Shown here one piece after another: positions 31,157 through 53,819 of a stretch of 55,711 nt of DNA (position 1 is the stretch's first letter; each line of letters opens with the position of its first letter). Location of the stretch: IMG/VR virus record IMGVR_UViG_3300046822_000225, positions 1 through 55,711 of that record, one strand, 5' to 3'. Below the pieces are notes generated by a model that saw only the letters and a list, made by a program, of their open reading frames with translations, was not told the origin of the DNA and did no database searches. The stretch is from a virus (lineage: Duplodnaviria; Caudoviricetes). Position numbers and translations under genes: made by a program.

Positions 31157-31163
31157 CTGTGGG

Positions 31164-31927: not shown

Positions 31928-33636
31928 TGGCGCTCGTGGCGTGTTTTGCTTGTGCGCGTAGCCGTTGGGGTGCGTGTTGGCGTCATGGCGGTGGTGGGCC
32001 GCGTGAGCTTGTTCTTCCTGGCGCCTTGGCGCTGTGTTCTTCGTCGCAGGAGTTCTCCACGCGCGGCGAGGCCCCCGACCCCAAGATCGGGTTGCCGTCA
32101 TCGGTCCGCGTCCTATCCCTCCCCCTGGGGGCGCGGACCGTTGACGATGTCGGACGGGTGGTGGCGGCGTGATCGTTCATGTGGTGCCGCACGCTGGTGT
32201 TGAGCAGGCGCGGATGGAGATGCGCTGGTGCGGGATCACTGTCGCGGCGTTGCAGGCCGCTGATGATCTTGGCGGGCCGGCTGATCTGATCTTGATCGCG
32301 GTCCCGGCTGGTGAGGGCCGCTTGCTGGTCGCGTCGTTGACGGGTGGTCCGGCGTTCGCGCCGGTGCCGCGCGAGTGTTGTCGCGATTGTGGTGAGTCGT
32401 TGGCGGGCCCGTCGCCTGACGGGCGTTGCGGTTGGTGCCAGGAGGAGTTCGCGCGGCCTCCCGGGGTCGGCGCATGACGGGCGCCTTGATCTTGGTGGTG
32501 CTGTTGCTGAGCCCGTTCGCGGCGATCGGCGTGATCGTGGCGGGTGCCGCGCTGGTGTTCTGGCTGCGCGGACGCCGGACGGGCGCTGTCGAGCGCGAGC
32601 GTGTGATGGCCGACAGCGTGGCGGAGTGGATCGCTCTGCCGCCGGCGGGCCTGGCTGACGACCTGCTTGGCTTGGGCGGCGCGAGGGCGCGGTCATGGCT
32701 GTGACGGGTGGCGGCCAGGAGCGTGATGCGCGTCTTCGGGCCGCGCAGAGCAGCACCCGGCGGCCGAGTTGGACGCAGCCGATCTGCGATCCCTGTTGGA
32801 TCAGCCGCCACCCGGCGCGACCGTCAACCCGCCTACTGTCGCCGGACGCTGAGACCTGCGCTTTCTGCGGCCGTCAGACGACATCGGGCATCTACGTGCG
32901 CGTCGACCCGAAGACCGTCCCGTTCCCGGCGACCCGGGAGGCCTGATGACGACGACGTTCTCCGAGCAGAGCGCGGGGAGGTTGTTCGGCGACGTCGTGG
33001 GCCCCGCCAGGTCCTGGGAGTGCGCGAGCCACGAGATTGAGGCTGCTCCGGCGTCGGCGATCTTTGTGCGGGGCATCTGGGGTGGACGGCGGCAGACGAT
33101 CCGCATCGATCCTGAAGAGGTCGACGAGCTCGCGCGTCGCCTTCACCAGGCCAAGCGCTACGTGCGAGGTGGTCGATGACACTTCCCAGCAGAAGCACTG
33201 GTGAGCGGCGCGCCCGGGCCAGCGTGACGGTCCTGGATGAGCGTCGCACCGCGGCGCTGCTGTACCCACGGTCGGCGCGGCGTGTGTTGGCGGTGCCCGG
33301 GTCTTGGTCTGCGAGAGCGGCTGTCATGGGGGCCGGTGTCCTGCCCTCGCCGGTCCCTGACAGCGCCGGTCGTGAGGGTCGGTCGTGACCGGTGTGACGG
33401 GCGTCGTGCCGGTCCGGGAGCGTGCGGGGCGCACCGCGGTTGATCGTGCGCAGGCGCGTCTTGATGACGCGTTGGCGGCGTATCACGCCGCGGCGGATGT
33501 CGTGCTTGGGCTGCCGTTGGATGCCGGCCTGGAGTTGCGTGACGCGCGGCTGGCGATGTGGGCTCTGCATCGGCCCGTGGACGAAGCGCGTGTCGCGTTG
33601 CGTGGTGCGCGGTTGCGATCGGATCGTCGGCGATGA
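31927..33636 (+). other. Run of about 7 coupled small hypothetical ORFs (31927-32172, 32169-32477, 32474-32704, 32695-32946, 32946-33179, 33176-33388, 33385-33636)
   Basis: Successive stop/start overlaps; two carry CxxC pairs, one has a TM helix. Confidence 0.55.
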
Positions 33637-34556
33637 CCGGCGGGATTGGGGTGGTGCCGGTGCAGGCAGCTGGATCGTCGTCTCTCAAGGGCGGGTTCGT
33701 TCGGTGGGCGCGTGAGACCGTGCCGGCGCGTGGACTGTCGCGCGGGCAGGCGCAGGTGCTCAAGGAGCTCGCGTCGCGCGCGGATCGTGATGGGTGCTGT
33801 TACCCGTCTGTGCGCGCGATCGCTCAGGGCGTCGTGCTGAGCGAGCGTCACACCAAGCGGCTGCTGGGCGAGCTCACTGAGCTGGGGTTGGTTCTCTCGC
33901 ACCATCGTGGGCGCGGGCGCAGCGCGCACCGGCAGCTGTGCCCGCACGCGCCGTTGCCGGTCGTTGGTGGTCAGCTGTCGTTTGATGACCTGCTCGCGCA
34001 GAGCGTGCCCGCGGCGTATGGCCCGGCCGCGGCCAAGGAAGGATTCATCCCGCCGTCGCCGGTTGTTGGAGTGCCATTGGCGTGTTTTGGAGTGCCATCT
34101 GATGGCCCGCAGAAGTACCAGACGGAAGAAAAAGAAGGGGCGGCAGCGCGCGAGCATGTTCTCGAGGAGCACCTGCACGACGTCCTGGCGGTGCTGGAGG
34201 GCGCGCCGGGCCTGGTCGTCGAGCCGATGTCGGTCAACAGCGCGCTCGCGGCGTACCCGCAGGCAGCCGGGCATGATCATCTGCGGGCCGCGCACACCGT
34301 CGCCAGCTACGCCTTTGAGGGCGGCCTACGTGTGCCGGCGGCCAACCGGCTGCTCCTCGCGGAGTTGCGCAAGCAGACCAAGCCGGTCGCCGGATCGCCG
34401 ACGACAACGAGTCGCGGCGGTGGTGAGCGTTGGCATGAGGGCCGCCGGCGGCCGGTACCGGCGGGGAAGCCGCAGAACGAGTGGGATCGCGTCCTGCAGG
34501 ACGAGTTGCGTCGGCTGCGTGGCAGCGATTCGCTGGTGCCGGCGGGCTGGACATGA
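33633..34556 (+). CDS. Replication initiator with N-terminal winged HTH
   Basis: LASRAD..GCCYPSVRAIA....SER..KRLL.EL.ELGLV. Confidence 0.8.
   Translation: MTGGIGVVPVQAAGSSSLKGGFVRWARETVPARGLSRGQAQVLKELASRADRDGCCYPSVRAIAQGVVLSERHTKRLLGELTELGLVLSHHRGRGRSAHRQLCPHAPLPVVGGQLSFDDLLAQSVPAAYGPAAAKEGFIPPSPVVGVPLACFGVPSDGPQKYQTEEKEGAAAREHVLEEHLHDVLAVLEGAPGLVVEPMSVNSALAAYPQAAGHDHLRAAHTVASYAFEGGLRVPAANRLLLAELRKQTKPVAGSPTTTSRGGGERWHEGRRRPVPAGKPQNEWDRVLQDELRRLRGSDSLVPAGWT

Positions 34557-35366: not shown

Positions 35367-35370
<4 letters not shown>
35113..35370 (+). CDS. Cys/Arg-rich hypothetical protein
   Basis: Coupled on both sides; multiple CxC/CxxC. Confidence 0.45.
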
Positions 35371-36286
<916 letters not shown>

Positions 36287-36290
<4 letters not shown>

Positions 36291-36530
36291 CCACCGCGAG
36301 CGTGCTTCCGCTCGCGGGGCTGCGTGTCGTCGACGCCGAGGATCCCGATGTCGATCAGCGCGTCGAGGTTGTCGTGGATGGCGTCGCGATCGCGCAGGTC
36401 GCGGCGAGCAAGCGTGGCGTACGCGATGACGATGCGTGGCCTGAGCGACATGAGGACCAGCGGCGGGTTCTATGTCGCGCAGGCGCGTGACCGCATGGGT
36501 TCCCCTGCGTCAGGAGGCGACCATGCCTGA
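36287..36530 (+). pseudogene. Small gene, possibly frameshifted near 36415
   Basis: The frame coupled upstream (36287) differs from the frame coupled downstream (ends 36530). Confidence 0.4.
36489..36512 (+). repeat. 24-bp junction element, copy 1
   Basis: GACCGCATGGGTTCCCCTGCGTCA then GGAG and ATG 36523. Confidence 0.9.
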
Positions 36531-37803
36531 GCGCTGCCCCTGCTGTGGTGCTCACGAGTTCGAGCAGCGGCCCGAGTGCGCGTCGCGCCAGCGCGACGCT
36601 CTCGCGGGCGGGATCCGCTCGATGCTGGGATCGCTCCCGTTCGTCGCGCCCGAAGCGCTCGCCGGCATGGTTGTGCAGAAGCTCGCCGGCGCGATGAGCG
36701 TCGCCGGCCTGCCGATCAAGCCCGACCGATCAGGACGCGACGATGCCTGATCCCGGGATCCGCGTCACCGTCCAGGACCTCGTCACGGGTGACTCCGAGA
36801 CGCAGGAGATCCACGACGACTACGTGATCGTCTGCGCCGGCACCTGCTACGTCGCGCACGTCAACGACTACCCGACGAAGGGCACCCAGATCCTGACGGT
36901 CAAGGGTCGACTCGGCCTCGGAGGCGACCATGGCTGAAGCGGTCTTCCTGACGTACCTGGAGGCGCAGGTGGCCGCTGCCGGCGCCGCCGGCGAGCTGGC
37001 CGCACGTCTGCCCGATCCGTTCGAGCTCGCCTCGCTCACGGTGTTCAGCAGCGAGGGAGCCTGGTTCGCTCGCATCCGCACCGACGTCTTCCTCGGGGTG
37101 AAGGTGACGCCCAATGGTTGAGGCCGGCACGACGTACAACATCGTGGTGCAGGCGCCCGATGTGCTGCCGGGCCCGTTGCGTCCCTGGTTCGTGCGCGCG
37201 TTCCACGCCGGCGACCAGACGCCGATCGCGACCGCCGAGCATCACGACCTGAAGCTCGCGGCCGACGAGGTGTTCGAGCGGCTGCGCGAGCACATCGAGG
37301 AGCGCATGGGCCGCGATGCGCACTTCGGTCTCGGCGACGCGCCGCACGGCGGCGCCGGCTTCAAGGAGTACACGCTCGACGATCACGACGAGATCCTTCA
37401 ACGCGAAGAGCTCCCGGTCTGGTGCGCGCGCGTCAACGAGCTCGTGCTCGCCGATCCGCTCCTGAACGCTCACCAGCTGCGCAACATGCATGGCGAGTTC
37501 GCGTTCTCGCCCGGCAGCTGCCCGCTTTGCAAAGCGCTCGCCGACATCGAGGTCCAGGTCCGCGACGAGATCCTCGGAGCGCGGCATGGGTGAGACCGCC
37601 AGAGCATCGGAGGTGGCGCGATGACGCGTCGGCAGAGGTGTGCGCGGGCGGAGCGCGCACGGGCTCACGCGGAGCGTCGCGACGGGCGGAGGGAGCCCGG
37701 AGCGGAGCAGCTGAGCACGCAGCGCGCGGCCGCGCGCCGGCAGCGAGATGAGCAGCGACGTCATGACCGCAAGGGCACCCCTGCGTCAGGAGCCAACCGG
37801 TGA
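36523..37803 (+). other. Small hypothetical ORFs (36523-36750, 36743-36937, 36930-37121, 37114-37593, about 37621-37803)
   Basis: Overlapping starts/stops, some with clear RBSs. Confidence 0.6.
37765..37788 (+). repeat. 24-bp junction element, copy 2
   Basis: GACCGCAAGGGCACCCCTGCGTCA then GGAG and GTG 37800. Confidence 0.9.
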
Positions 37804-39260
37804 CGGTTCCACCGCTCCCACCGCATCTCCTCGAGCTGCTCGGACGCGATCCCGCCAGGGACCGCAACGCGCTGGACCTGGCGAGCTTCTACGTCGAGGG
37901 TCTGAAATACGGGCCCGGCCCCGGCCAGCTCGAAAGCGTGAGCGACGAGCAGATCGTCAACCAGCTCGAGGTCCTACTGCGCGATGCCGGCGTCACGTCG
38001 ATGACCGGCCGGCAGCTCGCGGAAGCGTATGAGTTCTACGCGCGGTCTCTGGCGCTCACGCTCCGCGTACCGCTGATGGTCACCAGGACCGTCTTCCTTG
38101 ACGGGCTGGTGCATGGCATCGCGCTCGCGGGCGATGTCCGAGGCGAGCCCAGAGGTCCGCGCGCGGCGGGAGGCGACCATGGCTGAGCGCGTGGCGCTGG
38201 ATGTCGGCGACGTCGTCCTCCTGGACTCTGTCGGCGCGCGATGCATCGAGATCGAGCCGTCGGGTGAGGTCGGCGTCATCCTCGATCTCGAGGGGCGCCT
38301 GAACAAGCTGCAGGTTCGCGACGTGCACCGCTACATCCTGTCGGCGGGCAGCGCGGCGGAGCTGATCGCAGAGCTCGTCGTCGCTGCCCAGGAGGCGGCT
38401 ACACGCGGCTCATCTATGGGCATCACGGGCGGCCCGACGTTCCAAGCCGAGCTGGATGCGGCGATCGCCACCGAGCAGAAGCGCCGCGGCCTGTACCGAG
38501 GAGCCAACGGTGGCTGAGATCGAGACGGTCTCCTGGCAGGACATCGAGGACGCGATCGCCGCAGCGGTCGTGCCCGCCGAGATCGTTGTCGCGACCGCAT
38601 CGATTGAGCAGGGCGAGATGTTGCTCGAGGCGATCGCGCGCCGGCTTGGCGCGGGCGGCACCGCTCAGCGCGCGGGCTGTCTGCATTTGCCCGGCGCCGT
38701 TGTGCGCGTCGTCACCGACGACGACCAGATCGAGCAGCTGCGCCCGACGCGCGTCCTGATCCCGCAGACGCTGACCAACACCCGGCTCGAGCACCGCCTA
38801 CGCGCGTGCCTCGCCCGCCACGGAGGCACGCATGCCTGATCTCAATCCAGCGATGCGTCGCCCGGATGAGCCACTGGTGGACGCCTGCCGGCGCGTGGCG
38901 ATCGACGCTGTCTACCAAGCGCGCGACAGCGGCGGGACGATGCACACCGCCGGCGCGGCCGCGGCCGATGCCGTCCTCGCGCTGCTCGCACCAATCGACG
39001 ACCACCTGGTCCACATCGGGCGAGAGCGCTTCACGGTCACGCACCCGCTGACCGAGCGCGCCGACGGCACGATGCACCTCTGCGCGCTGCATCAGTGGCT
39101 GAGCGAGCAGGGCAGCCCGCCGGCGCCGCCCGGGCGCTACCGCGCGATCGAGCACCAGCCTGACGCGTACAGCGAGGACTACCGCGCCGATCCGTGGGAG
39201 CTCGAGCTCCTCGAGGACGACCGCAGCGGGACCACTGCGTCAGGAGACGATCGTGGCTAG
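37800..39260 (+). other. Four hypothetical ORFs (37800-38186, 38179-38517, 38510-38839, 38832-39260)
   Basis: 8-nt overlaps, each with a GGAG RBS. Confidence 0.65.
39219..39242 (+). repeat. 24-bp junction element, copy 3
   Basis: GACCGCAGCGGGACCACTGCGTCA then GGAG and GTG 39253. Confidence 0.9.
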
Positions 39261-40197
39261 CCGCCCTAGTCCGCCATACGGGCGGCTGGCTGCCGAGATC
39301 CCGCAGGTCGCGCTGCGCACAATCTGGCGCGACCGGCTGATCGTCGGCGCGCTGAACCTCATCGCCGGCCAGCCCGGCGTCGGGAAGAGCAGCCTCACCG
39401 CACTCATCGCCGCCGAGCTCTCCCGCCAGGGCAAGACGATCATCCTCAGCAACTGCGAGGACGATCCCGGCAGCGTCACGGTGCCGCGCCTATCGGTGGC
39501 CGGCGCAATCGAGTACGTCATCCAGAAGACCGGCACGGCCTGCGTGATCATCGACCCGATCGGCGCGCACTTCCGGCCGGAGCGCCGCGCGCATGATCGC
39601 GAGACGCTGCGCCAACTCGCCGGCATCGGCCGTCGCACGAACTGCGCGATCGTCGCCGTGCACCACACCACGAAGGCCGGCGAGGTCGGCGGTCCGAACA
39701 GCGGCCTACGCGGCACCGCGCGCGCGGTCTATGTCTACGGCTTTGATCCCGACGACGAGGACCGCCGCGCGCTCTCGGTCGACAAGATCAACGGCGTCGC
39801 CGAGCCGCCAGCGATCCTCTTCGAACAGGAGGTCGTCGAGTACTCGATCGGCAAGACTGTCCTCGAGGCCGGCAAGCTGCGCAAGGTCCGCCAGTCCAAC
39901 GCACGGGCCAGCGTGCACCGCGGCCGCCGCGACAACGAGCGCGACGCTGCGTGCCACGAGTGGCTGAGCGAGTACCTCGCGGGCTGCGAGGACTGCGCTC
40001 GAGCTGCGACCGACATCAAGGCCGCCGGCCGCGAGGAGGGCTACGGGGAAGCGACGCTGCGACGCGCGCAGACCACGCTGCAGGTCGAGCACGCCCGCCT
40101 GGGCGGCTTCGGCGCAGACGGCCACTGGACATGGCGGCTCCCGGATGAGCACCCGCTGCGCATAATCGCGAACGACCCAGAGGAGGTCGCCGGGTGA
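39253..40197 (+). CDS. RecA-fold ATPase (AAA_25/RepA-like helicase)
   Basis: GQPGVGKS, CEDD, VIIDPI, VHHTTK. Confidence 0.82.
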   Translation: MASRPSPPYGRLAAEIPQVALRTIWRDRLIVGALNLIAGQPGVGKSSLTALIAAELSRQGKTIILSNCEDDPGSVTVPRLSVAGAIEYVIQKTGTACVIIDPIGAHFRPERRAHDRETLRQLAGIGRRTNCAIVAVHHTTKAGEVGGPNSGLRGTARAVYVYGFDPDDEDRRALSVDKINGVAEPPAILFEQEVVEYSIGKTVLEAGKLRKVRQSNARASVHRGRRDNERDAACHEWLSEYLAGCEDCARAATDIKAAGREEGYGEATLRRAQTTLQVEHARLGGFGADGHWTWRLPDEHPLRIIANDPEEVAG

Positions 40198-40694
40198 ACG
40201 CGCACAACGTCAACCGCGACGAGCTGCCGGTGGTCCCTGGCGAGGTAGTCGGATGGCGGGCCTGGATCGTCGTCACCGCCGGCCACCGGGAGCCGCGGCT
40301 GCGGTCGCTGTACTACGGCGTGATCTGGCCGACCGACGACTGGCTGCTCGCAGCCGACGGAGAGCACCGCGGCTACGACCCGCACGGCATCTGCGCGGCC
40401 CGCGACCGGCAGCACCTGGTCGAGATGCACCGCTACGGCTCCAGCGCACATCCGCGCTACGTCGAAGGCGGCGGCGAGCGCCGCGGCATCGCCGCTATCG
40501 GCGCCGTCGGGCTCGCCGGCCTGGTCATCCCAGGGGACCGCGGTTACCGCGCCGAGAAGGCCAGGCCCCTGAGCATCCTGCTGCCCTACGCCGCCTGGGA
40601 ACTCGTCGAGCCACTTCGCCGCGCCTACCGGGTGCCCGTCGGGCTCTCGAACGTGCTGGTCAACGCAGGAGGGCACTGTGGACATCGGTCCTGA
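40194..40694 (+). CDS. Conserved hypothetical protein
   Basis: GWRAW..LRSL..GI.A..IGAV.L.G.VI....GYRAE pattern. Confidence 0.7.
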   Translation: MNAHNVNRDELPVVPGEVVGWRAWIVVTAGHREPRLRSLYYGVIWPTDDWLLAADGEHRGYDPHGICAARDRQHLVEMHRYGSSAHPRYVEGGGERRGIAAIGAVGLAGLVIPGDRGYRAEKARPLSILLPYAAWELVEPLRRAYRVPVGLSNVLVNAGGHCGHRS

Positions 40695-40818
40695 GCAGCC
40701 CCCGTTCATCGCCGAGCCGCTCCGGGACCCGTTCCGGTCGGCGCCCGAGCCGGAGCCCGAGCCCGCCGCGCCGGAGCCCGAGCCAATCCACCAGCCCGCC
40801 GAGCCCACCCGCGCGTGA
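40678..40818 (+). CDS. Short Pro/Glu-rich peptide (MDIGPEQ...PEPEP)
   Basis: RBS AGGAGG, GTG 40678, stop overlaps next GTG; below ORF-track cutoff. Confidence 0.6.
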   Translation: MDIGPEQPPFIAEPLRDPFRSAPEPEPEPAAPEPEPIHQPAEPTRA

Positions 40819-41099
40819 GCTCGACAGCAGACACCTTGGTGGGCGAGGGAATCGCGTCGGAGCCGCGGCCGCGCCCACGCGCGGCTAACGGCTCATTCAC
40901 TCGAGCGGACGCGCCCTCGCCCACCAAGACGGGCCGCGGCGGCTTCACCGGCAGCCCGATCACCGCCTGGTGCTCGCGCTGCCAGGACCACGCGGTGCCG
41001 ATGCGCGACGGCACTGCGGCTTCTGCGGCCGCGCGATCAGCAATCACGCCCCCCCCCGACAGCACAAAGGAGAAGCGCTCGTGTCCAAGCCAGCCATAG
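40815..41099 (+). pseudogene. Zinc-ribbon gene with apparent frameshift
   Basis: CSRC and CGFC lie in different frames, break near 41013. Confidence 0.5.
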
Positions 41100-41989
41100 C
41101 TGACCGCCCGCCCGCGGTCGAGACCCCGGCGACGGCGATCCGCGCGCGCCTCGTGACGATCACGCCGCAGCTCGCCGAGAAGTGGCTGAGCAAGAACACG
41201 CACAACCGCAACGTCGTCAACTCGCGCGTCAACCAGTACGCCGCCGACATGCGCCGCGGCGAGTGGCGAGTCAACGGCGAGACCATCAAGCTGGCAGTCG
41301 ACGGGACGATCCTCGACGGCCAGCACCGCCTCATGGCCGTGCTCGAGGCTGGCATCGAGATCCAGAGCCTGGTGATCTCGGGCCTCGAGGCACAGGCACA
41401 AGAGACGATGGACCAAGGACGCGCGCGCACGCTGTCTGACGTCTTCAAGCTCCGTGGCGAGAAGTACTGGGGTCCGCTGGCGACAGCGACGCGGATGCTG
41501 GCGATCTACGAGCTCTACGGCCAGCTGCTGCAGCCGCCATACGAGCCGACGCCGAGCATCCAGCAGGCCGGCCGCTCGCTGGATCGCAACCCGGAGCTGC
41601 GCTCGAGCGTCGCGTTCGTCTTCGGCCTACGCCGTAGCTGGATGCCGTCCAGCCACCTTGGCGCGCTGCACTTCCTGCTCGCCAGCGTCGACGCGGACGC
41701 CGCCGACGACTTCGTCACCAAGCTGAGCACCGGCGAAGACCTGCAGCGCGGCCACGCGATCTACGCGCTGCGCGAGCAGCTGATGCAGGTGCACATGGAG
41801 CGCACGCCGCTCGGCCAGCGCATGCAGCTGGCGCTCATCGTCAAGGCGTGGAATGCGTATCTGGCCGGCGACCACGTCGCGCGGCTGCGCTGGACGCCGG
41901 GCGGCCCGCAACCTGAGGTGTTTCCCACCATCAGCGGCCTGGCGACGGCCGGCGACGGCGACGACCGCAATGGACCCACTGCGTCATGA
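41081..41989 (+). CDS. ParB-N-like (DGQHR) protein
   Basis: ITP..A..WL..N..NR..Y..DM..G.W..LDGQHRL.A; RBS AAAGGAG. Confidence 0.85.
   Translation: MSKPAIADRPPAVETPATAIRARLVTITPQLAEKWLSKNTHNRNVVNSRVNQYAADMRRGEWRVNGETIKLAVDGTILDGQHRLMAVLEAGIEIQSLVISGLEAQAQETMDQGRARTLSDVFKLRGEKYWGPLATATRMLAIYELYGQLLQPPYEPTPSIQQAGRSLDRNPELRSSVAFVFGLRRSWMPSSHLGALHFLLASVDADAADDFVTKLSTGEDLQRGHAIYALREQLMQVHMERTPLGQRMQLALIVKAWNAYLAGDHVARLRWTPGGPQPEVFPTISGLATAGDGDDRNGPTAS
41963..41986 (+). repeat. 24-bp junction element, copy 4
   Basis: GACCGCAATGGACCCACTGCGTCA; last A begins the ATGA stop/start. Confidence 0.9.
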
Positions 41990-43033
41990 CCGATCTCGAC
42001 ATCGACCTCACGATCGTCATCCCCAACAAGCTCGACGCGTGCCGCCGGCTGGGCGTCGACCCAGACGTGCTGTTCGGCGTGAGCGCCGGGCTGCGCGGCC
42101 AGCTGGAGGAGCGTTACGGGCGCCGTCACGCCGTCTCACCGGTCCAGCGCGCCAACGCTGTCGCCGCCGACCTCGTTCTGCTCGGCATGACGATTCAAGA
42201 CGAGGGGCTGCTGTGCCCGCCACCGCCGACCGCGGACGAGGAGCGGGATGTCGCACGACACGTCGCCGACGACGACCACGGACCGTTCGACCCGGAAGAT
42301 CTCGTGAGCTGGGCCGAGACTTATGGACACCCCGAGGGCTGGGCGAAGCGCGCCCAGGCCGCGCACGCGCGCGCCGAGCGCCTCCAGGAGGAACTTCGAG
42401 CCGCCCGTGACGCCGCGCCCCAGGCACCCGGAGCCGGCACGTGACGCCGCAGGACTACACCCGGGTGATCACGCACGCGCACGCGATCCGGATGTTCGCC
42501 CGCGAGGTCGACGGCGTCGACGAGGCGCTCGAGCTGATCGAGCGCGCCGAGACCGTCGGCCCGATCCTTGACGCCACGCTCTACCAGCAGCGCTCCGGCG
42601 CGATGCGCGAGGACCGCGACACCTTGCGAGCGGTGCGCGCGCTCGCGCAACTGGGAGCGCGCACATGACCGCCGCCTCGATCACGCGCGCCTCGGACCTG
42701 ACCAAGCTGACGCTCGTCGTGCTGCGCGCGGTCCATGAGGTAGGCACGCCTACCGCTTCGCGCGACGCGATCCGCCAGATCGTTCCGTGCAGCGACGCCG
42801 GCCTCACGCGCGCGCTGAACACCCTGCGCCGCCACGGGCTCGTCGAGCTCGGCGCCTGGCCCGCGCTGCTGAACCTCGTCACGCGCGCCGGCCACCAGGT
42901 GCTCGACGAGCACTACCACCGGTCGCCGCGCTGCCGCGCCTGCGGATGCACCCAGAACGTCGCCTGCGATGGCGGGTGCTCCTGGGCTGAGCCCGATCTG
43001 TGCAGCAGCTGCGCGACGGAGGTGCTCTTCTGA
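41986..43033 (+). other. Three hypothetical ORFs (41986-42444, 42441-42668, 42665-43033; the last has a wHTH plus Cys-rich CRACGCT..AC..GCSW..LCS.C domain)
   Basis: Translational coupling and motifs. Confidence 0.65.
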
Positions 43034-45093
43034 TGCAGACGTCTCTGTTCAGCGCGGGACTACAGCGCGCCGGCACCCCCGTGATCGCGAGTGCGTCGTG
43101 CTGGTACTGCTGCGGCATCGGCGTGCTCGAGGCGACCGACATGTTCTGCGGCGCCGGCGGCAGCTCGCTGGGCCTTGAGTTCGTGTGCTGCCCGGCCTGC
43201 GGCCGGCAGCTGATCACGATCACGCAGGCGATCAACCACTGGGATCTCGCTGTCGAGGCGCACAACGCGAACTTCCCCAACGCCGATCACGACGTCCACG
43301 ACGTCCATGAGATCCCGGCCAAGCGCTTCCGGCGCACGCCGGTGTTCTGGGCCAGCCCGGAGTGCGTGAACCACACCAGCTGCAAGGGCAAGCGCGACGA
43401 CAGCCCCGAGGCGCAGCGATCGCGCGCGACGTTCACGGACATCGTCAGGTTCACGGCCTATCACCGCTATGACGCGGTGATCGTCGAGAACGTCGTCGAG
43501 GCCAGATTGTGGTGCGAGCACGAGGACTGCGCGTGCGGCGGCGAGTTCGACGCGTGGTATCAGGCGATGCTCGACGAGGGCTACGTCGGGCAGATCGCCT
43601 ACTTCAACAGCCAGTTCGCGTTGCCGACGCCACAGAGCCGCGACCGCATGTACGTCGTCTTCAGCCGCGTCGGCGCGCGGCTGCCGAACGTCGACTTCCG
43701 GCCGATGTCGTGGTGCTCGTCGTGCACCCAGGTCGTGCATGGCATCCAGACGTGGAAGCCGGCGTCCAAGGGCTCCGCGCGCGAGCGGATCTTCGAGTGG
43801 GGCCGCTACGGCCCGCAGTACCTGTACCGCTGCCCCAACGATGGCTGCGCGGCCGCGGTCGCGCCGGCGGTGATCGGCGCTAGGTCGATCATCAACTTCG
43901 GCCTGCCGATCGAGCGGATCGCTGACAAGCCGCCGACGCTGTGCCGGTCGTGCGGCAAGCGTCACCCGGTCGCGTGCAACACGCGCCGGCGCATCCGAGT
44001 CGGCATACAGAACGTCGGGTCCCGGGTGCCCGTCGCGGTGCAGGTCGGCGGCAACCTGTTCGAGCGCGCCGGCAAGGCGCGGGTGTGGTCGCTGGAGGAT
44101 CCGCTGCGCACCATCACCGGCACGTCGTGCATGGCCTTGGTCACGCCGATGCGCGACGGCAGCGTGCCGGCGAGCGCGGCCCAGCCGACGCCGACCGTCA
44201 CCGGCCGCTCGCAGCTGGGGCTCGTCACGCCCGCCGGCGGGCAGGACGCGGCCGCGCGCAGCATCGACGACGCGATGCACACGGTCCTCGGCAGCGAGCG
44301 TCTCGCGGTCGTGCTGCGCACGGGTGGGCAGGCAGCGGCGGAGCGTGATGCTGCCGAGCCGCTGAACACGGTCACCTCACATGACCGCCAGATCGGCCTG
44401 GTCATGCAGAACATGGAGCACAACCTCCCGCGCGACGTCGACGAGCCGAGCCCGCCGGTCACGACACGCGGCAACCACATGCTGGTGCAGGTCAACCGCG
44501 GCGACGGCAAGGACCGCAAGCGCGCCGGCCGGCGCGCATGGGACGTCGACGAGCCCACGCCGACGATCGCGGGGCATGGCGAGCTCGGTCTCGTCGAGTT
44601 CCGTGGTCAGCACGGCACCATCCGCGAAGGCGACGCGCCGATGCACACCGTCACCGCGCAGGGCACCCACCACGGCATGCTCGTCTACAACGGCGTGCCC
44701 GGCTTCGTGCGCGACCTACAAGATGCCGCCGGGACGATCACCGGCCGCGACAAGCAGAGCCTGCTGGTGCCGTACTTCCGCACCGGCGTCGCGCGCGGCA
44801 CCGACGAACCACTCGGGACCGTCACATCACACGACCGCGAAGCCCTCGTCATCACCGACGCCGACGTCGACGAGATGTTCCTGCGGATGCTGCAGTGGGA
44901 GGAGCTGCTGCGCGCGCAGGTCATGGACCTGCACCCCGACGGCACGCCCTACCAGCTGACCGCGAGCCGGCGCAACAAGCGCGGCAAGATGGTCGAGCTG
45001 AGCAACGAGCTGCGCACGAAGATGATCGGGAACGCCGTCAGCTGCCCGGTCGCGACGATGCTCGGCGCGGCTGTCATGGAGTCGCTGCGATGA
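43033..45093 (+). CDS. DNA (cytosine-5)-methyltransferase with long repeated variable region
   Basis: FCGAGG, SPEC, ENV, PQSRDR, GNAV motifs. Confidence 0.92.
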   Translation: MQTSLFSAGLQRAGTPVIASASCWYCCGIGVLEATDMFCGAGGSSLGLEFVCCPACGRQLITITQAINHWDLAVEAHNANFPNADHDVHDVHEIPAKRFRRTPVFWASPECVNHTSCKGKRDDSPEAQRSRATFTDIVRFTAYHRYDAVIVENVVEARLWCEHEDCACGGEFDAWYQAMLDEGYVGQIAYFNSQFALPTPQSRDRMYVVFSRVGARLPNVDFRPMSWCSSCTQVVHGIQTWKPASKGSARERIFEWGRYGPQYLYRCPNDGCAAAVAPAVIGARSIINFGLPIERIADKPPTLCRSCGKRHPVACNTRRRIRVGIQNVGSRVPVAVQVGGNLFERAGKARVWSLEDPLRTITGTSCMALVTPMRDGSVPASAAQPTPTVTGRSQLGLVTPAGGQDAAARSIDDAMHTVLGSERLAVVLRTGGQAAAERDAAEPLNTVTSHDRQIGLVMQNMEHNLPRDVDEPSPPVTTRGNHMLVQVNRGDGKDRKRAGRRAWDVDEPTPTIAGHGELGLVEFRGQHGTIREGDAPMHTVTAQGTHHGMLVYNGVPGFVRDLQDAAGTITGRDKQSLLVPYFRTGVARGTDEPLGTVTSHDREALVITDADVDEMFLRMLQWEELLRAQVMDLHPDGTPYQLTASRRNKRGKMVELSNELRTKMIGNAVSCPVATMLGAAVMESLR

Positions 45094-45157
45094 CCGGCGC
45101 CGCGCGCCGCCGGCGCTCCTATGGCGAGCGGACAGCGCCGGCGGCAGCGGCGCCTGT

Positions 45158-45415
45158 TCAGGAGGCCCTCTTCACGTGATCGGGCTCTGCGCTCAGCACG
45201 AGATCGATCCTTCTCGCGGCGTGCCTGCGCCAGGTCGTGCCGTCGGCGTCCACGATCCAGTCGCGCACACCGCCGTCGAGCATCGGCTGCACGCGAACGG
45301 CGCCGTCGTCGAAACCCCACACCATCAGCCGCCCGACCTCCTGGGCCGCGAGCCGGCACACGGCCAGCCACTGCAGCGGCGCGAGAGGATGGCCCGCATA
45401 GCTGACGGCTTCCAT
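45158..45415 (-). CDS. Hypothetical antisense protein between the methyltransferases
   Basis: Protein-like composition (MEAVSY..MVWGFDDGAVRV..DWIVDADGTTW); + frames look less protein-like. Confidence 0.5.
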   Translation of the reverse strand: MEAVSYAGHPLAPLQWLAVCRLAAQEVGRLMVWGFDDGAVRVQPMLDGGVRDWIVDADGTTWRRHAARRIDLVLSAEPDHVKRAS

Positions 45416-45441
45416 GGCACGCGAGCCTACGGCGGGCGGAC

Positions 45442-46416
45442 ATGACGACCGGCGCGTTCCCGACCGCCGCGCCGTTCGCGTGGTACGGCGGCAAGCAGCG
45501 CATGGCGCCGGCGATCGTGAACCTGCTGCCGCCACACCGCACCTACGTGGAGGCGTTCGGCGGGGCCGCGGCAGTCCTGTGCGCGAAGCGGCCGGCGGTC
45601 CTCGAGGTCTACAACGACGTCGACGCCGGCCTCGTCACGTTCTTCCGGGTCCTGCGCGATCGCCCCGAGGAGCTGGAGCGCGCATTGCGCTTGACGCCCT
45701 ACGCCCGCGACGAGTTCGCGCAGTGCGTCCAGACCTGGGAGGCGATCGAGGATGACCTCGAGCGCGCGCGCCGCTGGTACGTCCGCTGTCGCCAGGCGTT
45801 CGCCGGGTCGGCGGCGACGGTCGGCTGGGGCTATGAGATCAGCGGAGTCCAGCGCGCGGGCACGCGGGCGTCGTCGTTCGCGACCTCGGTAGAGCAGCTG
45901 GAGCGCTTCGCCGAGCGCTTCCGTCGCGTGCAGATAGACCAACTCGGCTGGGAGGCCGTGCTCGAGCGCTACGACGGCCCTCAGACCTGCTGGTACCTCG
46001 ATCCGCCGTATCACCCGGCGACGCGTGGCGAGCGCGGATTGCGTCGCAACGCGGCCTACGTGCACGAGCTGGACGCCGCGGGCCATGACGACCTTGTCGC
46101 GGCCGCGATCGCCCTCAAGGGGTCGGTCGTCATCTCCGGCTACGACCACGAGTCCTACCGCCCGCTGGTTGACGCCGGCTTCGAGCGGTTCACGTTCGCC
46201 CACAACGCGTCGGCGTCGCGGGTGTTCAGCGGCCGCGGCGTGCGCACGGAGGTTGTTTGGCGCCGGCTTGAGGCGGGCGTGCACCACATCTCGCGCTTGT
46301 GGTCTGACGACGAGGCCTCCCTTGCGTCGGACGTAGACGACGGTCAGATCCCAGGCCAGCTCACGGTCGAGCAGGTCCTCGCCGACCACGACCGCAAGGG
46401 AGCCCCTGCGTCATGA
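45442..46416 (+). CDS. dam: Dam-family (D12) DNA adenine methyltransferase
   Basis: WYGGK, YVEAFGG, YNDVD, YLDPPY, ISGY. Confidence 0.93.
   Translation: MTTGAFPTAAPFAWYGGKQRMAPAIVNLLPPHRTYVEAFGGAAAVLCAKRPAVLEVYNDVDAGLVTFFRVLRDRPEELERALRLTPYARDEFAQCVQTWEAIEDDLERARRWYVRCRQAFAGSAATVGWGYEISGVQRAGTRASSFATSVEQLERFAERFRRVQIDQLGWEAVLERYDGPQTCWYLDPPYHPATRGERGLRRNAAYVHELDAAGHDDLVAAAIALKGSVVISGYDHESYRPLVDAGFERFTFAHNASASRVFSGRGVRTEVVWRRLEAGVHHISRLWSDDEASLASDVDDGQIPGQLTVEQVLADHDRKGAPAS
46390..46413 (+). repeat. 24-bp junction element, copy 5
   Basis: GACCGCAAGGGAGCCCCTGCGTCA; last A begins the ATGA stop/start. Confidence 0.9.
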
Positions 46417-47394
46417 CCGGCCTCGCCGCCATCGCGCATCTCGGAGACCTACCTTCGTGGCTGACCTGGGGACAGGCCGCATGGACAGCGGGCGACGCCA
46501 CACCCCTGGAGGCCATCTGGTTCACGGTGGCCTGCTACTGCTGGTGTGGTTGCGTACTCGGCCTGCTCGGCTGGTTGATCGCAGCCGAGGAGCCCGGCGA
46601 GGAGACCCTCGTCATCGTCTTCGTCGGAGCGTTCGTTGGCCTGATGTGGCCGATCGTTCTGGGCGCCGGGATGCTCGCGGCGATCGGTTACGCGATCGTC
46701 GTGCCGCCGCGGGCCGCTCTGGCGCGCCATCGTCGCTCTGTTGGTGCGGCTCGCGCGGCGGCTGACGCGCGCCGCGACCGGATCGCGGAGCTTGAGCGCG
46801 ACCTGGAGATCACATGATGGCGGCCTCGACGATGGGCGGGGAGCGCATCCTGAAGCAGATCCGCGACGGTCTGGTCTCGGAGCTCTCCTGGTTTCAGCGC
46901 CGCAACCTCCTTGACGGCTCGCCGCCGGCGCCGCTGCGCGAGGCGCAGATCCCGGACAGAGATCGGCTGGAGGAGTACGCCACGGCGGTCGCCGTGGTTT
47001 GCGACCTGACCGAGTCGATCCTGAACCTGGAGCAGGCGATCGCGCTCGTCCCGGCGACAGACGATGGCCTGCAGCTCGCGATCGATCGCGCGCTCAGCAT
47101 CCTGGGTGACTCCGAGTGGCTTGACGGCCGCTCGACGGTCGGCACGCGCGCGATCCGCGATGTTCTCGCGCCGTTCGCGTCGAGGCCGTCATGAGCGCGC
47201 TCGTCTGCCCGACGTGCGGTGTGCGCTGGCGGATCGTTGTCGGCACCGACGACATGCAGCGCGCCTGCCCGCTGCACGCGCCCGCAGGCGACCCGCCGGC
47301 GCCGCGCGTTCGCGGCGCCGGCCTGCCTGACCTGCAGCCGCAGATCGCGCACGCTCGCCGCCGCACGGCCACCGAGCAGACAGGCTCGGCATGA
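46413..47394 (+). other. Three small ORFs (46413-46817 membrane protein, 46814-47194, 47191-47394)
   Basis: ATGA overlaps; TM helices in the first. Confidence 0.6.
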
Positions 47395-47771
47395 CGACGG
47401 CCACGCGCGACGCGCCGGTTCAGGCGCCCGACCGCTCGCTGCAGCAGCGCCGGGCCGCGCTGCGCAAGGCCAACGACATACGGGTTGCGCGCGCCGCACT
47501 GAAGCGCAAGCTCAACCACACACGCCGGCCCGATGCGCTGCGCGAGGTCGCGGCGCACATCCTGCAGCCCGACGACACGCTGCTCACGATGAAGGTCGCG
47601 GACCTCCTGATGGCATGCCCATCGGTCGGCGCCTACAGGGTGCATCAGGTCCTGACCAGGGGCCGGATCAGCCCCAACAAGACGATCGGCGGTCTCGCCG
47701 ACGCGCAGCGCAAGTGGCTGGCGTTCGCGCTGTCTCAGATCGCCGGCCGCAGGACGATCGGCTTGCGATGA
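47391..47771 (+). CDS. mihF: Actinobacterial-type integration host factor homologue
   Basis: QR.AAL.KAN.IR..RA.LK..L, MKV.DLL...P.VG, RISP.KTIGGL...QR match mIHF/sIHF signatures. Confidence 0.85.
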   Translation: MTTATRDAPVQAPDRSLQQRRAALRKANDIRVARAALKRKLNHTRRPDALREVAAHILQPDDTLLTMKVADLLMACPSVGAYRVHQVLTRGRISPNKTIGGLADAQRKWLAFALSQIAGRRTIGLR

Positions 47772-48043
47772 GCGGCGCGCCGCTGACGGTCGCCGCGGCC
47801 GCGCAGCTCGCCGGCGTGCACCCCAAGACGATCCGCCGCGCGATCGATCGTGGTGATCTGCGTGCGATGCGCCCGGGCGGCGGGCGCAAGATCGTGGTCC
47901 TCGAGCCGGACCTGGTCGCGTGGCGTGATCAGCCGGTCGTTCCGCGATCGCGCACGGTCGATGTGTCACCGAGGCCTTCCCGCCGGCCGCCGGAGCGGGG
48001 TAGCCTCGCGGCCCTGCGTGCAATGGAGAGGAGCCGACGGTGA
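47768..48043 (+). CDS. xis: Excisionase (HTH_17-like)
   Basis: LTVAAAAQLAGVHPKTIRRAIDRGDLRA; directly upstream of the integrase. Confidence 0.85.
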   Translation: MSGAPLTVAAAAQLAGVHPKTIRRAIDRGDLRAMRPGGGRKIVVLEPDLVAWRDQPVVPRSRTVDVSPRPSRRPPERGSLAALRAMERSRR

Positions 48044-49155
48044 GCGACGGCCGAAAGTCAAACGGTAAGTGGGTGGACCGCTGGCATGAGGGCACGGTGA
48101 AGCGCCAGCGCACGTTTGACCTCAAACGCGACCGTGACACCTTCCGGCGCGAGCGCATCCGCCGCCAGCAGCTCGGCGACGTCGTGATCGTCGCGCGTGA
48201 CGTCACGCTCGCGGTGTTCGTGGAGGAGTGGTGGCAGGAATACGCGCTCGTCGAGCTCGAGCGCAGCACCCGTGCGACCTACGCGCAGACGTGGGAGAAG
48301 CACCTGCGCGCCCGCGTCGGCGGGTTCGCGCTGCGCCAGCTGGACACCGATGTCGTGCTCGACCTGCGCCAGGCGCTCACGAGCGCCGGCGCCGGCGCGC
48401 CGACGATCGCCAAGTCCCTCGTCGTGTTGCAGAGCATCCTGAGCTTCGCGGTGCTGAAGAAGCGCATCGCATTCAACCCGGTCGCGAGGGTCCGCAAGCC
48501 CTCGATCACACCAAGCCGTCAGGTCGCGCCGATCCCGCCCGCGGTTGTCGAAGACCTCCGCGCGCGCCTGAGCGCGCGTGACGCGATGCTCGTGTCCGTG
48601 CTCGCGTACGCCGGCCTGCGGCCGCAGGAAGCGCTCGCGCTGCACGGCGAGGACATCAGCGACCGCAAGATCTTCGTGCACCGCAAGGTCGTCGACGGCG
48701 AGCTGCTCGGCTACACCAAGACCCGCCGCAACCGCTGGGTGCGGCTGCTCGGCCCGCTCGCGCAGGACCTCGCCGAGTACCGCCTCGCGACAGGCCGCCG
48801 CGACGGGCTGCTGTTCCCGCGCGCGGACGGGGAACCGTGGCGCGCACACGACTGGCGCAACTGGCACCGCCGCATCTACCAGCCGAACGCGGCCGCGGTG
48901 GGTCTGATCGGCGCACGCCCGTACGACCTGCGCGGCTCGTTCGTGTCGCTGCTGATCTGGGAGGGACAGACGATCGTGGAGGTCGCCAGGCAGGCCGGCC
49001 ACAGCGTCGCGACGTCTGACCGGCACTATGCGAGGATGTTCGAGGACTTCGATCCGGACGCCCGGCAGTCGGCCGAAGACGCGATCCGAGCAGCCCGCCA
49101 ACCTGGTGGACGCGGAATGGACGCGCTCTTCGACCTGGAGGTCGGCCGGTCGTGA
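48040..49155 (+). CDS. int: Tyrosine integrase
   Basis: AGLRPQEALAL (R), TKT (K), YDLR, AGHS, HY catalytic residues. Confidence 0.95.
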   Translation: MSDGRKSNGKWVDRWHEGTVKRQRTFDLKRDRDTFRRERIRRQQLGDVVIVARDVTLAVFVEEWWQEYALVELERSTRATYAQTWEKHLRARVGGFALRQLDTDVVLDLRQALTSAGAGAPTIAKSLVVLQSILSFAVLKKRIAFNPVARVRKPSITPSRQVAPIPPAVVEDLRARLSARDAMLVSVLAYAGLRPQEALALHGEDISDRKIFVHRKVVDGELLGYTKTRRNRWVRLLGPLAQDLAEYRLATGRRDGLLFPRADGEPWRAHDWRNWHRRIYQPNAAAVGLIGARPYDLRGSFVSLLIWEGQTIVEVARQAGHSVATSDRHYARMFEDFDPDARQSAEDAIRAARQPGGRGMDALFDLEVGRS

Positions 49156-49478
49156 TCACGAGCCCACGAAATCCCTGCAAAGATGCAGGACACGCCCTCC
49201 TAGCTCAGTTGGTAGAGCACTTCCATGGTAAGGAGGTGCAGGGTGTCCACGCAGGGCCTTCCCAGTCATCGGGAGCCGCGAAAACACCTGCTCACGCCCC
49301 TGAAACGAGTGGACACCGAGACGCCGCCGGGCGCCCGCTGACCGGTCCTGACGGACGCGCAAAGGACGCGCTGACCGCAGCTCCCAACCCACGGGTTATG
49401 CGATACATGCAGAGCGACGCTCGGGCCCGCAACATTCGAGATCGACGCGCGGGCGAGACGGACGCGCAAAGGACACAC
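49108..49478 (+). other. attP: core 49194-49236 with tandem arm-type repeats at 49108-49126, 49353-49371 and 49460-49478
   Basis: GGACGCG-N4-GGAC(G/A)C pairs on both sides of a tRNA fragment next to int. Confidence 0.8.
49194..49236 (+). tRNA. 5' half of tRNA-Thr(GGT); truncated, probable att core
   Basis: GCCCTCC TA GCTC AGTTGGTA GAGC A CTTCC ATGGTAA GGAGG, with no T arm or 3' acceptor strand. Confidence 0.88.
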
Positions 49479-53729: not shown

Positions 53730-53819
53730 CGAGGCGCTTGCGTATATCGGCGCGCGGCGGCGCGCCCGAACGCGGCGATGGACGTACGCAGAGGGGCGAC
53801 TGCGGTCAACCCCAGGGCA

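Follow-up and report, generated by a model that had tools for sequence, protein, structure and literature searches.

What would a phage gain from repeating one 24-nt sequence, always in the same orientation, at five gene junctions of its early region? The window analysed here is an entire virus record from a soil phage, a complete genome of 55.7 kb (55,711 nucleotides) with about 77 called genes. Judged by its gene content, the phage is temperate, encoding a tyrosine integrase and an actinobacterial-type IHF along with several HTH proteins; its host is probably actinobacterial and probably not a Mycobacterium. We assign a probability of roughly three in four to the reading that the repeated element is a phage-specific regulatory binding site, as opposed to a recombination site or a product of chance. 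The operator, stoperator, start-associated and RNA-hairpin options raised in the first-pass annotation are all viable and together form the best reading of the locus, and the sections below consider which of them the element fits.

Copy number and conservation of the element

The element reads GACCGCA-NN-GG-NN-CC-N-CTGCGTCA over 24 nt. A pattern scan of the full record returned five forward copies without a mismatch (starting at 36489, 37765, 39219, 41963 and 46390, all on the plus strand), none in reverse and none with a backwards control, which matches the five same-orientation copies first described; the reported spacings of 1276, 1454, 2744 and 4427 bp were also correct by subtraction. Shuffled sequence gave a mean of 0.01 pattern matches and reached five copies in 0 of 100 shuffles. 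All of the copies lie inside one 10-kb stretch (36.5-46.4 kb) on the coding strand of the operon, and the distance from the 3′ end of the element to the next start codon is 0-12 nt in every case. We estimate the probability that five same-strand copies would each fall near a start codon by chance at less than 1e-8.

Nineteen of the 24 positions are invariant across the five copies. The remaining positions (8, 9, 12, 13 and 16) take two to four bases, in agreement with the freely variable centre that had been noted, and the centres (TT, CA, GA, AC and AG across the set) differ in every copy. Such a combination of 19 invariant and five free positions is the signature of a recognition site rather than of decaying duplicates. 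Conservation stops at the edges of the element, except for a G and an A at the second and third bases beyond; the 3′ flank reads GGAGG, GGAGC, GGAGA or TGAC. When every position of the record was scored against the 19 fixed bases, 19/19 was reached five times, 16/19 once and at most 14 everywhere else. The 16/19 site is a candidate sixth copy, degenerate and on the minus strand (53784..53807), with both arms nearly intact and no start codon adjoining. It lies 13 nt downstream of a minus-strand tRNA-Gly(GCC) (53820-53892), in the sense direction of the tRNA, and is statistically marginal, with a score of at least 16/19 arising in 26 of 300 Markov simulations.

In sequence searches the element is most likely private to this phage. 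Neither IMG/VR nor about 185,000 species genomes yielded a multi-copy match, and the scan of related phages suggested at the outset found the motif absent from two related contigs, L089 (11.6-kb part) and L091 (whole 47-kb record), which carry no copy at the homologous junction.

Five gene junctions

Copies 1-3 lead into a Shine-Dalgarno sequence, and the GGAG motif followed 6-7 nt on by ATG or GTG that had been reported for them is confirmed. Copy 1 (36489..36512) is followed by GGAGG (36513-36517) and the ATG at 36523 of a 75-aa Cys-rich ORF, copy 2 (37765..37788) by GGAG (37789-37792) and the GTG at 37800 of a 128-aa ORF, and copy 3 (39219..39242) by GGAG (39243-39246) and the GTG at 39253 that starts an AAA_25 ATPase, the N-terminus of which is consistent with 31 homologues. 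The ATGA overlaps reported for copies 4 and 5 are likewise present. Copy 4 (41963..41986) forms the final eight codons of a DGQHR/phrog_5931 ParB-like gene, and the next gene's ATG opens on the copy's last A (41986); copy 5 (46390..46413) forms the final eight codons of a D12 (Dam-type) methylase gene and its last A opens the ATG (46413) of a 134-aa membrane-like ORF. Copies 1-3 thus stand 11-12 nt farther from the start codon than copies 4-5 do.

The further claim that every copy overlaps the 3′ end of a gene stands for copies 3-5, where the upstream genes are solid (the DUF6085 gene at 38832-39260, the ParB-like gene and the Dam methylase gene), and for copy 2 with respect to a 60-aa Arg-rich ORF that was not called, whose last codons contain the copy. 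It does not stand in the same way for copy 1. There, bases 1-2 touch only the TGA of a plus-strand ORF (36287-36490) called by two pipelines, and the codon model prefers a minus-strand ORF starting at 36451 (+19.7 versus -1.4), which, if real, makes copy 1 intergenic. A further plus-strand junction (38145..38190) resembles a decayed copy: its RBS-start stretch is identical at 21 of 22 positions to that after copy 1, the gene upstream has the same GGDH-x tail, and by manual count only 14 of 24 positions agree with the element across the 24 nt that stand where it would be. In a packed genome, junctions are perhaps only the places that tolerate a fixed 24 nt, and adjacency to starts need not be functional.

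Dyad, fold and covariation

The inner 18 bp form a perfect dyad in all five copies, CGCA-N10-TGCG, with asymmetric flanks. The outer arms GAC and GTC are complementary only when one C is left unpaired relative to this dyad, as had been observed at first, and such offset complementarity is explained by a folded strand and not by duplex DNA. Conservation is asymmetric as well, in that position 17 never varies but position 8, its partner in the dyad, does. At the inner pair the copies have G-C three times, T-A once and C/A once, in keeping with the earlier count of four complementary pairs in five.

Isolated 28-mers fold as the bulged hairpin at -6.3 to -10.6 kcal/mol (z -0.8 to -2.0). Within 52 nt of context the fold is no better than that of shuffles (z -1.3 to +0.9), and the MFE structure contains the hairpin for only two of the five copies. 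A covariation test was not significant (one compensatory change, six invariant arm pairs, 96 of 500 shuffles equalling the score), and an alternative pairing register displayed no covariation. Rfam covariance models at gathering score identified no RNA family at the element and, over the entire window, two tRNAs and nothing else. Scans of 33-49 kb returned three minus-strand terminator-like sites, none of which coincides with a copy, and zero promoter-like sites for sigma-70 (-35/-10 hexamers with 16-18 nt spacing). No T-run was found 3′ of the copies.

A proposed hairpin operator and its candidate partner

We tentatively propose that the element serves in the early mRNA as a bulged hairpin operator of the sense strand, to which a phage factor binds; the candidate for this factor is an Arg-rich protein. 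The five elements would be private cis-acting sites of an early operon for replication and DNA modification, which a sequence-specific factor reads along the direction of transcription. Each copy would fold, within the polycistronic early mRNA, into two 3-bp outer stems split by a bulged C, followed by a 2-3-bp inner stem and a free loop, and the hairpin would abut the Shine-Dalgarno sequence (copies 1-3) or include the start codon's first base (copies 4-5). Binding by a phage protein could then set the output of the next gene, whether translation initiation is blocked or coupled or read-through is affected in an N/nut-like way. The copies with their invariance pattern, strand, junction positions and absence from relatives are observed, as is the conservation of the Arg-rich ORF; we infer that the element may act as RNA, that a protein may bind it, that the Arg-rich ORF may encode this protein and that expression may respond. 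The loop is the variable part of the hairpin, yet many RNA-binding proteins read loops, a point against the RNA version. If the proposal is correct, an Arg-rich peptide and an RNA hairpin would act together as a gate, one block at a time, on the translation or read-through of the genes for replication and DNA modification.

The candidate trans-acting partner, judged by its sequence and position, is the 60-aa Arg-rich ORF (37621..37803, plus strand), the gene of which would itself end in copy 2. It has a strong RBS (GGAGG, 37609-37613) ahead of its ATG at 37621, reads through copy 2 and fills the gap between its neighbour genes exactly, with a stop codon that overlaps the GTG at 37800. Neither of two pipelines called it in this record, and its codon score is poor (-16.9). 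Arg-rich ORFs can also arise by chance in 70% GC DNA. Three small homologues were found; in the alignment 22 columns are invariant, and the first 27 residues hold 19 of these. Two of the three (P0204 and P0206) end in ...TPASGG.. or ...TAS, the peptides encoded by the right arm of the element, and the third (P0207) has no element-like tail; the link between gene and element thus seems conserved, as a hint at the peptide level. The ORF is absent, as is the motif, from L089 (11.6-kb part) and from all 47 kb of L091. Searches of Pfam and PHROGs with the ORF gave no match.

Weighing other explanations

Nearly as likely as the hairpin operator is a duplex-DNA operator, a stoperator-like 24-bp site at which a bound regulator would block early transcription, at initiation or elongation, depending on the orientation of the site. 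Invariant arms around a free centre and the inner 18-bp dyad in five of five copies are what such a site should have, transcription-tied orientation and short-junction location are defining traits of stoperators in the part of PMC9283540 that describes them, and for ESAS inverted repeats the discussion in PMC3203893 favoured DNA binding. A temperate phage with a tyrosine integrase, IHF and several HTH proteins is also a plausible setting. Against this, there are only five copies within one 10-kb stretch and none at a recognisable promoter, and a symmetric dimer would account neither for the asymmetric conservation of positions 17 and 8 nor for the offset complementarity of the outer arms. Candidate binders are a 213-aa protein with a C-terminal HTH (50939-51580, minus strand) or another HTH protein, but a search for the cognate protein identified none. 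The 213-aa protein has only weak matches (HTH, sigma-r4 and phrog_664), its single-sequence fold prediction has a pLDDT of 37, too low to use, and the best site by the HTH gene (51761) scores 14/19, which is noise level. The same protein enters a different and very improbable explanation in which the copies are promoters for an alternative sigma factor, ECF-like or phage-encoded, with the left arm as -35 and the right arm as -10. Phage-specific promoters are typically long, invariant, same-orientation sequences in front of genes, GAC...CGTC at 16-nt spacing resembles ECF promoter architecture, and the 213-aa protein weakly matches sigma-70 region 4/ECF (E 5e-5, below the cut-off). No sigma region-2 match was found, however, and the invariant GG..CC centre and positions 5-7 and 17-19 would go unexplained. 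Moreover, a transcript that began downstream of copy 4 or 5 could not encode the next gene, whose start codon opens on the last base of the element, and at copies 1-3 the transcript would lack the Shine-Dalgarno sequence. An RNA hairpin might also act passively, without a dedicated phage protein, as a processing or stability determinant or a weak attenuator that segments the early RNA; RNase III sites between T7 early genes have a comparable role. Sense orientation at junctions and the candidate sixth copy, 13 nt past a tRNA at a place where one expects 3′ processing or termination, are compatible with this explanation, but that copy is marginal and a purely structural element does not need strict sequence invariance. 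The stems are short and weak, far under the roughly two helical turns that RNase III needs, and neither a U-tract nor a predicted terminator accompanies the copies, all of which makes a passive hairpin unlikely.

Recombination was another suggestion of the first-pass annotation, with the element as a boundary for cassette exchange reminiscent of attC. Site-specific or short-homology shuffling of gene blocks, or crossover by a serine recombinase, is improbable, and the attC-like version found no support: the element has 24 nt, lacks attC features and core boxes, and has a different centre in each copy, with no integron integrase among the matches. A small serine recombinase is encoded (54262-54981), and the 11-2-11 layout of the element resembles the crossover sites of serine recombinases; partner sites of that kind share an identical central dinucleotide, but the five centres here all differ, which would block productive exchange by serine or tyrosine recombinases. 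Of the synteny breakpoints that the first-pass annotation proposed to look for, one coincides with copy 3. Similarity to the two related contigs begins within about 40-50 nt downstream of copy 3 (window 39280 and 39289), near the ATPase start, with nothing in common upstream, but the shared ATPase module lacks an element at its opposite end (about 40.7 kb), and in mosaic phages synteny breaks at gene starts by default. Also in favour of recombination is the junction at 38145-38190, which resembles a duplicate of the copy-1 junction that has decayed. Exchange between direct repeats, though, would be expected to delete replication genes; no credible contig joins copies, the relatives have no copy at the homologous junction and no multi-copy carrier was found elsewhere. 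The last explanation, that the copies encode a C-terminal peptide tag (D-R-x-G-x-x-A-S) shared by several early proteins, has in its favour that the upstream ORFs read copies 2-5 in one frame and that copy 1 can be read likewise in an open frame. The shared ATGA forces the frame in copies 4-5, however, and the remaining evidence amounts at most to (1/3)^2 to (1/3)^3. Third codon positions 3, 6, 15, 18, 21 and 24 are invariant and residues 3, 5 and 6 vary, which indicates selection on nucleotides. The tails also lie beyond the family profiles, with the DUF6085 match stopping at residue 118 of 142, before the copy-3 tail, and none of 119 ParB-like homologues of the gene upstream of copy 4 carries an element-type tail. 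We consider a peptide tag the least credible reading.

Comparison with known systems

Integron attC sites are 57-141 nt long, with conserved R/L boxes (R''/L''...L'/R'), a GTTRRRY-type core and a variable terminal structure, and they act as folded single strands with the IntI integrase, beside an attI/Pc platform. The element resembles them in its imperfect inverted repeat, extrahelical base, variable centre and location at gene 3′ ends. It differs in its conserved length of only 24 nt and in the absence of attC core boxes from a direct reading of the five 24-mers. No IntI with an attI/Pc platform was found near it, and the sole tyrosine recombinase of the window is an ordinary phage integrase that matches Phage_integrase and Phage_int_M. 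Another comparison for the hairpin operator proposed here, beside other pairs of an Arg-rich peptide and an RNA hairpin, is the N/nut (boxB) system of lambda, in which a small basic phage protein with an N-terminal Arg-rich stretch and sense-strand hairpins belong to the same early operon. Lambda has two nut sites just past promoters, with boxA as a partner and a sequence-specific loop, whereas this phage has five junction sites with no conserved flanking box and a variable loop, and Pfam and PHROGs gave the Arg-rich ORF no match that would show sequence homology. By analogy, a single 60-aa basic protein might read five bulged hairpins with a logic like that of N-boxB or Rev-RRE in a phage of a deep actinobacterial lineage, though we regard so complete a parallel as doubtful.

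Gene-junction repeats of this kind are already documented in actinobacteriophages. The 17-bp dyad repeats of Cluster O, as presented in the relevant part of PMC4351075, share with the element invariant inverted arms, a variable centre and positions between ORFs near the non-structural end. Unlike the element, they are perfect 7-3-7 palindromes without meaningful orientation, number more than 30 copies, lie inside genes in a third of cases and are not tied to starts. Stoperators of Cluster A (L5 gp71 type), according to the portion of PMC9283540 concerned with them, are asymmetric and sit in short intergenic regions of temperate actinobacteriophages with an orientation tied to transcription, as do all five copies here on the coding strand. 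They are, by the same account, 13-mers present at more than 20 per genome in both arms, promoters included, and a known repressor, monomeric and with two domains, binds them. In contrast, the element has 24 nt with dyad character, five copies plus one marginal and no promoter copy; the window yielded no family match to a gp71-type repressor (HTH plus stoperator domain), with the 213-aa HTH protein weakly matched only.

On the descriptions contained in the pertinent parts of PMC3203893 and PMC12699233, the closest known analogues are the SAS and ESAS repeats of Cluster K. These are short repeats private to one phage group and located in the non-structural arm, where an ESAS is an imperfect inverted repeat placed directly before an RBS-containing SAS. 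The SAS has a 13-bp consensus, GGGATAGGAGCCC, with at most two mismatches; this consensus is absent from all five copies, which are unrelated in sequence. The element is also a single 24-nt unit with 7-8-nt arms and a 9-nt centre as opposed to 17-bp ESAS arms with a 4-13-bp spacer plus the 13-bp SAS, and there are five copies as opposed to 11-19 SAS. The likenesses are in architecture: both kinds of repeat have a near-uniform orientation, lie just upstream of starts and sometimes over the upstream stop, and the element, like SAS and ESAS, lies no more than a few nucleotides from the start, in one orientation and confined to the non-structural arm. At some K4 sites the start codon's first base is even the last of the repeat, as it is in copies 4-5 (PMC3203893, PMC12699233). 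If the hairpin operator proposed here is correct, the element and its Arg-rich candidate partner would give a first way into the mechanism of the unexplained repeats that accompany start codons in actinobacteriophages.

The element and its copies

The 24-nt quasi-palindrome reads GACCGCA-NN-GG-NN-CC-N-CTGCGTCA and occurs five times in the window, always on the plus strand, with starts at 36489, 37765, 39219, 41963 and 46390 (copies 1-5). The copies, strand and coordinates put forward in the first-pass annotation are therefore confirmed. Shuffled sequence gives a mean of 0.01 matches to the pattern, and the entire 55,711-bp record holds no reverse-strand copy of it in full. When the 19 fixed bases were scored at every position of the window, five sites reached 19/19, one site reached 16/19, and all others stayed at 14 or below. 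Because a 16/19 match also arose in 26 of 300 random simulated sequences, that site (53784-53807, minus strand) is graded only as a possible sixth copy. Alignment of the copies with 60-nt flanks showed that conservation ends at the edges of the element, except for a G and an A located 2 and 3 bases downstream. Within the element, positions 8, 9, 12, 13 and 16 carry two to four different bases and the remaining 19 never vary, a bimodal distribution that indicates selection on a recognition site rather than decay of duplicated DNA. The junction at 38145-38190 resembles that at copy 1 in a decayed form.

Each copy lies at a gene junction. Copies 3, 4 and 5 form the last codons of well-supported genes, and the tails of the upstream genes extend beyond their family profiles, with the DUF6085 profile ending at residue 118 of 142 and that of phrog_5931 at residue 322 of 339. 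For copies 4 and 5, the last base of the element is the A of the next ATG (an ATGA overlap), and copies 1-3 are followed directly 3′ by GGAG and then by ATG or GTG 6-7 nt further on. Copy 2 sits in a 206-nt stretch without coding signal in the codon model. This stretch is filled exactly by a 60-aa ORF that begins at GGAGG-N7-ATG and whose stop overlaps the next GTG. Copy 1 touches just the stop codon of an ORF at 36287-36490 (+) called by two pipelines. That ORF and another at 36122-36451 (-) are mutually exclusive and neither has a family match; codon statistics prefer the first 53 codons of the minus-strand ORF over the plus-strand call.

Genomic setting

The 55,711-bp record is linear, is rated a complete virus in IMG/VR, and represents a temperate phage of siphovirus-like type. 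Its structural and lysis genes point rightward and extend to about 29.6 kb, with a tRNA Ala(TGC) at 27869-27944 (+). Between the end of lysis and the gene for an O-like replication initiator (33558-34556) lies a stretch of about 2.8 kb (30700-33500) with no convincing frame on either strand in the codon model, no Pfam matches, and GC and AT skews opposite to those of the remaining genome. The rightward early operon follows the initiator and comprises small ORFs, DUF6085, an AAA_25 ATPase, a DGQHR/phrog_5931 ParB-like protein, a C5 methylase and a Dam-type methylase. In the gene at 35367-36290, about 20 tandem 9-bp units (35885-36145, +) code for an Ala-Ala-Asp/Tyr repeat, which explains a spurious "Plasmodium HRP" Pfam match. 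The AAA_25 ATPase (39253-40197, +) lacks a 22-residue segment, just past the Walker-A region block, that is kept in 31 of 31 aligned homologues, so its sequence may be that of a deletion variant. Beyond the operon, the phage carries its own actinobacterial-type IHF gene (47391-47771, +) directly before a tyrosine integrase (48040-49155). Just past the integrase gene, at 49201-49233, contigs assembled from one DNA run, possibly of the source sample, and placed on 33.0-53.0 kb break and branch, and their loose ends resemble tRNA; the site is probably the attP core, which the phage would share with a host tRNA gene.

To the right of the integrase, a 213-aa protein with a C-terminal HTH is encoded on the minus strand (50939-51580). 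A 78-aa ORF at 53493-53729 (+) has a clear match to the Acb2/Tad1 hairpin domain (E 1.9e-19), and by this homology its product is likely an anti-CBASS/Thoeris signal sponge. A small serine recombinase gene (54262-54981, +) lies near the right end beside an HTH_Tnp_1-like ORF. Divergent from it is a possible 76-aa minus-strand ORF (54262 to 54040), with a tRNA Gly(GCC) downstream (53820-53892, -). A ParB-like homologue at 49% identity is named from Paraconexibacter algicola; this homologue and the actinobacterial-type IHF fit the Thermoleophilia-type actinobacterial host that the first-pass annotation had guessed at, although they do not amount to proof.

Distribution and relatives

The exact motif was found in no other IMG/VR contig, and among roughly 185,000 species genomes it matched twice, with one match in a betaproteobacterial MAG and one in a MAG of Chloroflexia. 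A pattern of the arms only matched 75 IMG/VR contigs once each, many of them in one conserved gene of unrelated phages, and with the right arm and GGAG together there were at least 120 matches, all single. These outside matches look like chance. Scanning IMG/VR and the species genomes revealed no other multi-copy carrier, and across these sequence collections the motif belongs to this phage alone. Literature searches returned only incidental sequence matches for the two arm words and nothing relevant on Thermoleophilia phages.

By nucleotide sequence, blastn against cultured phages gave 31 records that each cover at most 3% of the query. The ATPase has 83 homologues, the best 83% identical. 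As a single-protein query against IMG/VR it gave no matches, a broad profile gave six distant loci, and a tighter profile recovered L089 and L090 from metagenomes and L091 from IMG/VR. Junctions were compared in two of these contigs, L089 and L091. At the corresponding junction of L089 (ATPase identity 76%), the two genes simply overlap as TGATG; no copy of the element occurs in 11.6 kb, and none of this contig's own repeats form a family that looks like a junction element. The element is also absent from L091 (49% identical) and its whole 47-kb record. Similarity of both contigs to the window starts near the ATPase start and stops after the next gene. The tail encoded by the element is found in none of 119 non-self ParB-like homologues (up to 76% identical).

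A putative small arginine-rich protein at copy 2

The 60-aa ORF that reads through copy 2 (37621-37803, +) is very arginine-rich, has a strong RBS, and was not called by the pipelines used here. A HMMER search of 1.8 billion representatives returned three matches, two small proteins and one of 468 aa (33% identity over six matched stretches), and a profile search gave three small homologues of 51-68 aa from metagenomes. Aligned with these homologues, the ORF shares 22 invariant columns; 19 of these fall within residues 1-27, and the four sequences have a common start. This pattern is evidence that a genuine small basic protein is encoded and conserved, even with the poor codon score and no pipeline call. 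The protein belongs to no Pfam or PHROG family and has no match in IMG/VR, cultured phages or the fetched loci. Of these three homologues, one ends in ...TPASGG.. and another in ...TAS-stop, both being peptides that the element's right arm encodes, and the third ends differently. The homologues are encoded on contigs of 4,425, 55,303 and 14,093 bp, the last of which also carries a gene for a ParB-like protein. A further protein (P0085) has a tail reading ...EPAS. The ORF is also absent from the relatives without the motif. Only at the level of peptides, these results suggest that the ORF is passed on jointly with an element placed at its 3′ end, and that the element has spread to further junctions within this phage.

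How the element may be read

The first-pass annotation proposed a hairpin with a bulged C. Isolated 28-mers do fold this way (-6.3 to -10.6 kcal/mol, z -0.8 to -2.0), but the copies folded in a 52-nt context do no better than shuffles. Across six copies, including the candidate sixth, six arm pairs stay constant and one compensatory change is seen (G-C in three copies, U-A in one). Such covariation does not exceed that of shuffles, 96 of 500 of which reach an equal score, and a second pairing register shows none. The modeled hairpin is plausible but unproven. The outer arms GAC/GTC pair only at a one-base offset from the perfect inner dyad CGCA-N10-TGCG, and this offset, which is accounted for by a bulge and not by a symmetric duplex site, favors a folded strand.

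Several explanations were weighed against these observations. Exchange of gene cassettes at attC-like sites, as raised in the first-pass annotation, is improbable and goes unsupported, since the element fails the defining features of attC and the differing centers argue against exchange between copies. One edge of the ATPase module shared with the two relatives does coincide with copy 3, but the opposite edge has no element. In the DNA run, one 13,163-bp contig spans copies 1-5 and is identical to the window there. No products joining copies turned up; further joints are only short-sided (20-24 nt), one of them from 41962 beside copy 4, and such joints usually lead to foreign organisms. We draw no conclusion on excision or expression from this run. 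A promoter is also improbable, given that its spacing fails and the start codon of copies 4 and 5 begins at the element's last base. A terminator was rejected for lack of a U-tract and for weak stems. That copies 2-5 are read in one same frame by the upstream ORFs might point to a peptide tag, yet the frame is imposed by the shared overlap in copies 4 and 5 and uncertain in copy 1, which weakens any peptide reason for a frame common to all five. Synonymous positions are fixed while the encoded residues differ, so the constraint is on nucleotides, and a tag is very improbable. Under any of the explanations, the closeness to start codons may itself be nonfunctional, as junctions in a packed genome may simply be where a fixed 24-mer is tolerated.

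This leaves a regulatory site that is specific in sequence and dependent on orientation, and the regulatory and RNA-control options of the first-pass annotation are retained as the leading readings. We tentatively favor, at a probability of about 0.3, a phage protein that would read the element as an RNA hairpin in early mRNA, with the arginine-rich product as the candidate. A duplex operator or stoperator-like site is an almost equally probable, likewise tentative alternative; the "conserved inverted repeat" operators of phiC31 offer an analogy, and the one-base offset speaks for the folded strand instead. The 213-aa HTH protein, folded without an alignment, gave a pLDDT of 37, too low for the model to be of use. 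A hairpin acting passively in the RNA is unlikely.

Comparison with known junction repeats

The element offers a compact case for study, with five copies, 19 of 24 positions invariant, a bulged-hairpin geometry and a candidate partner encoded on the spot. Whether it acts as RNA or DNA is testable with a few reporter constructs and one synthetic peptide. Should it prove orthogonal to the host, it might also be adopted in high-GC actinobacteria as a portable part for expression control. Cluster-specific junction repeats are common in actinobacteriophages, with a mechanism known for stoperators only; in the papers cited here, the function of SAS/ESAS and Cluster O repeats is still unexplained (PMC3203893, PMC12699233, PMC4351075). 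The closest described are the SAS/ESAS of Cluster K mycobacteriophages, which share with the element a place in the corresponding genome arm, a single orientation and a position at starts. They include an inverted repeat ahead of a motif that carries the RBS, and even a form whose last base is the first of the start codon. Stoperators, as described in PMC9283540, follow the same orientation rule and also lie at junctions, but their size and number are different and their repressor is known. Cluster O repeats likewise have invariant arms around a free center, but they lack an orientation and bear no relation to start codons (PMC4351075). By sequence and architecture the element belongs to none of the three. 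It is most probably a regulatory site whose general kind is already known; both its sequence and its geometry are new, and its candidate partner is testable.
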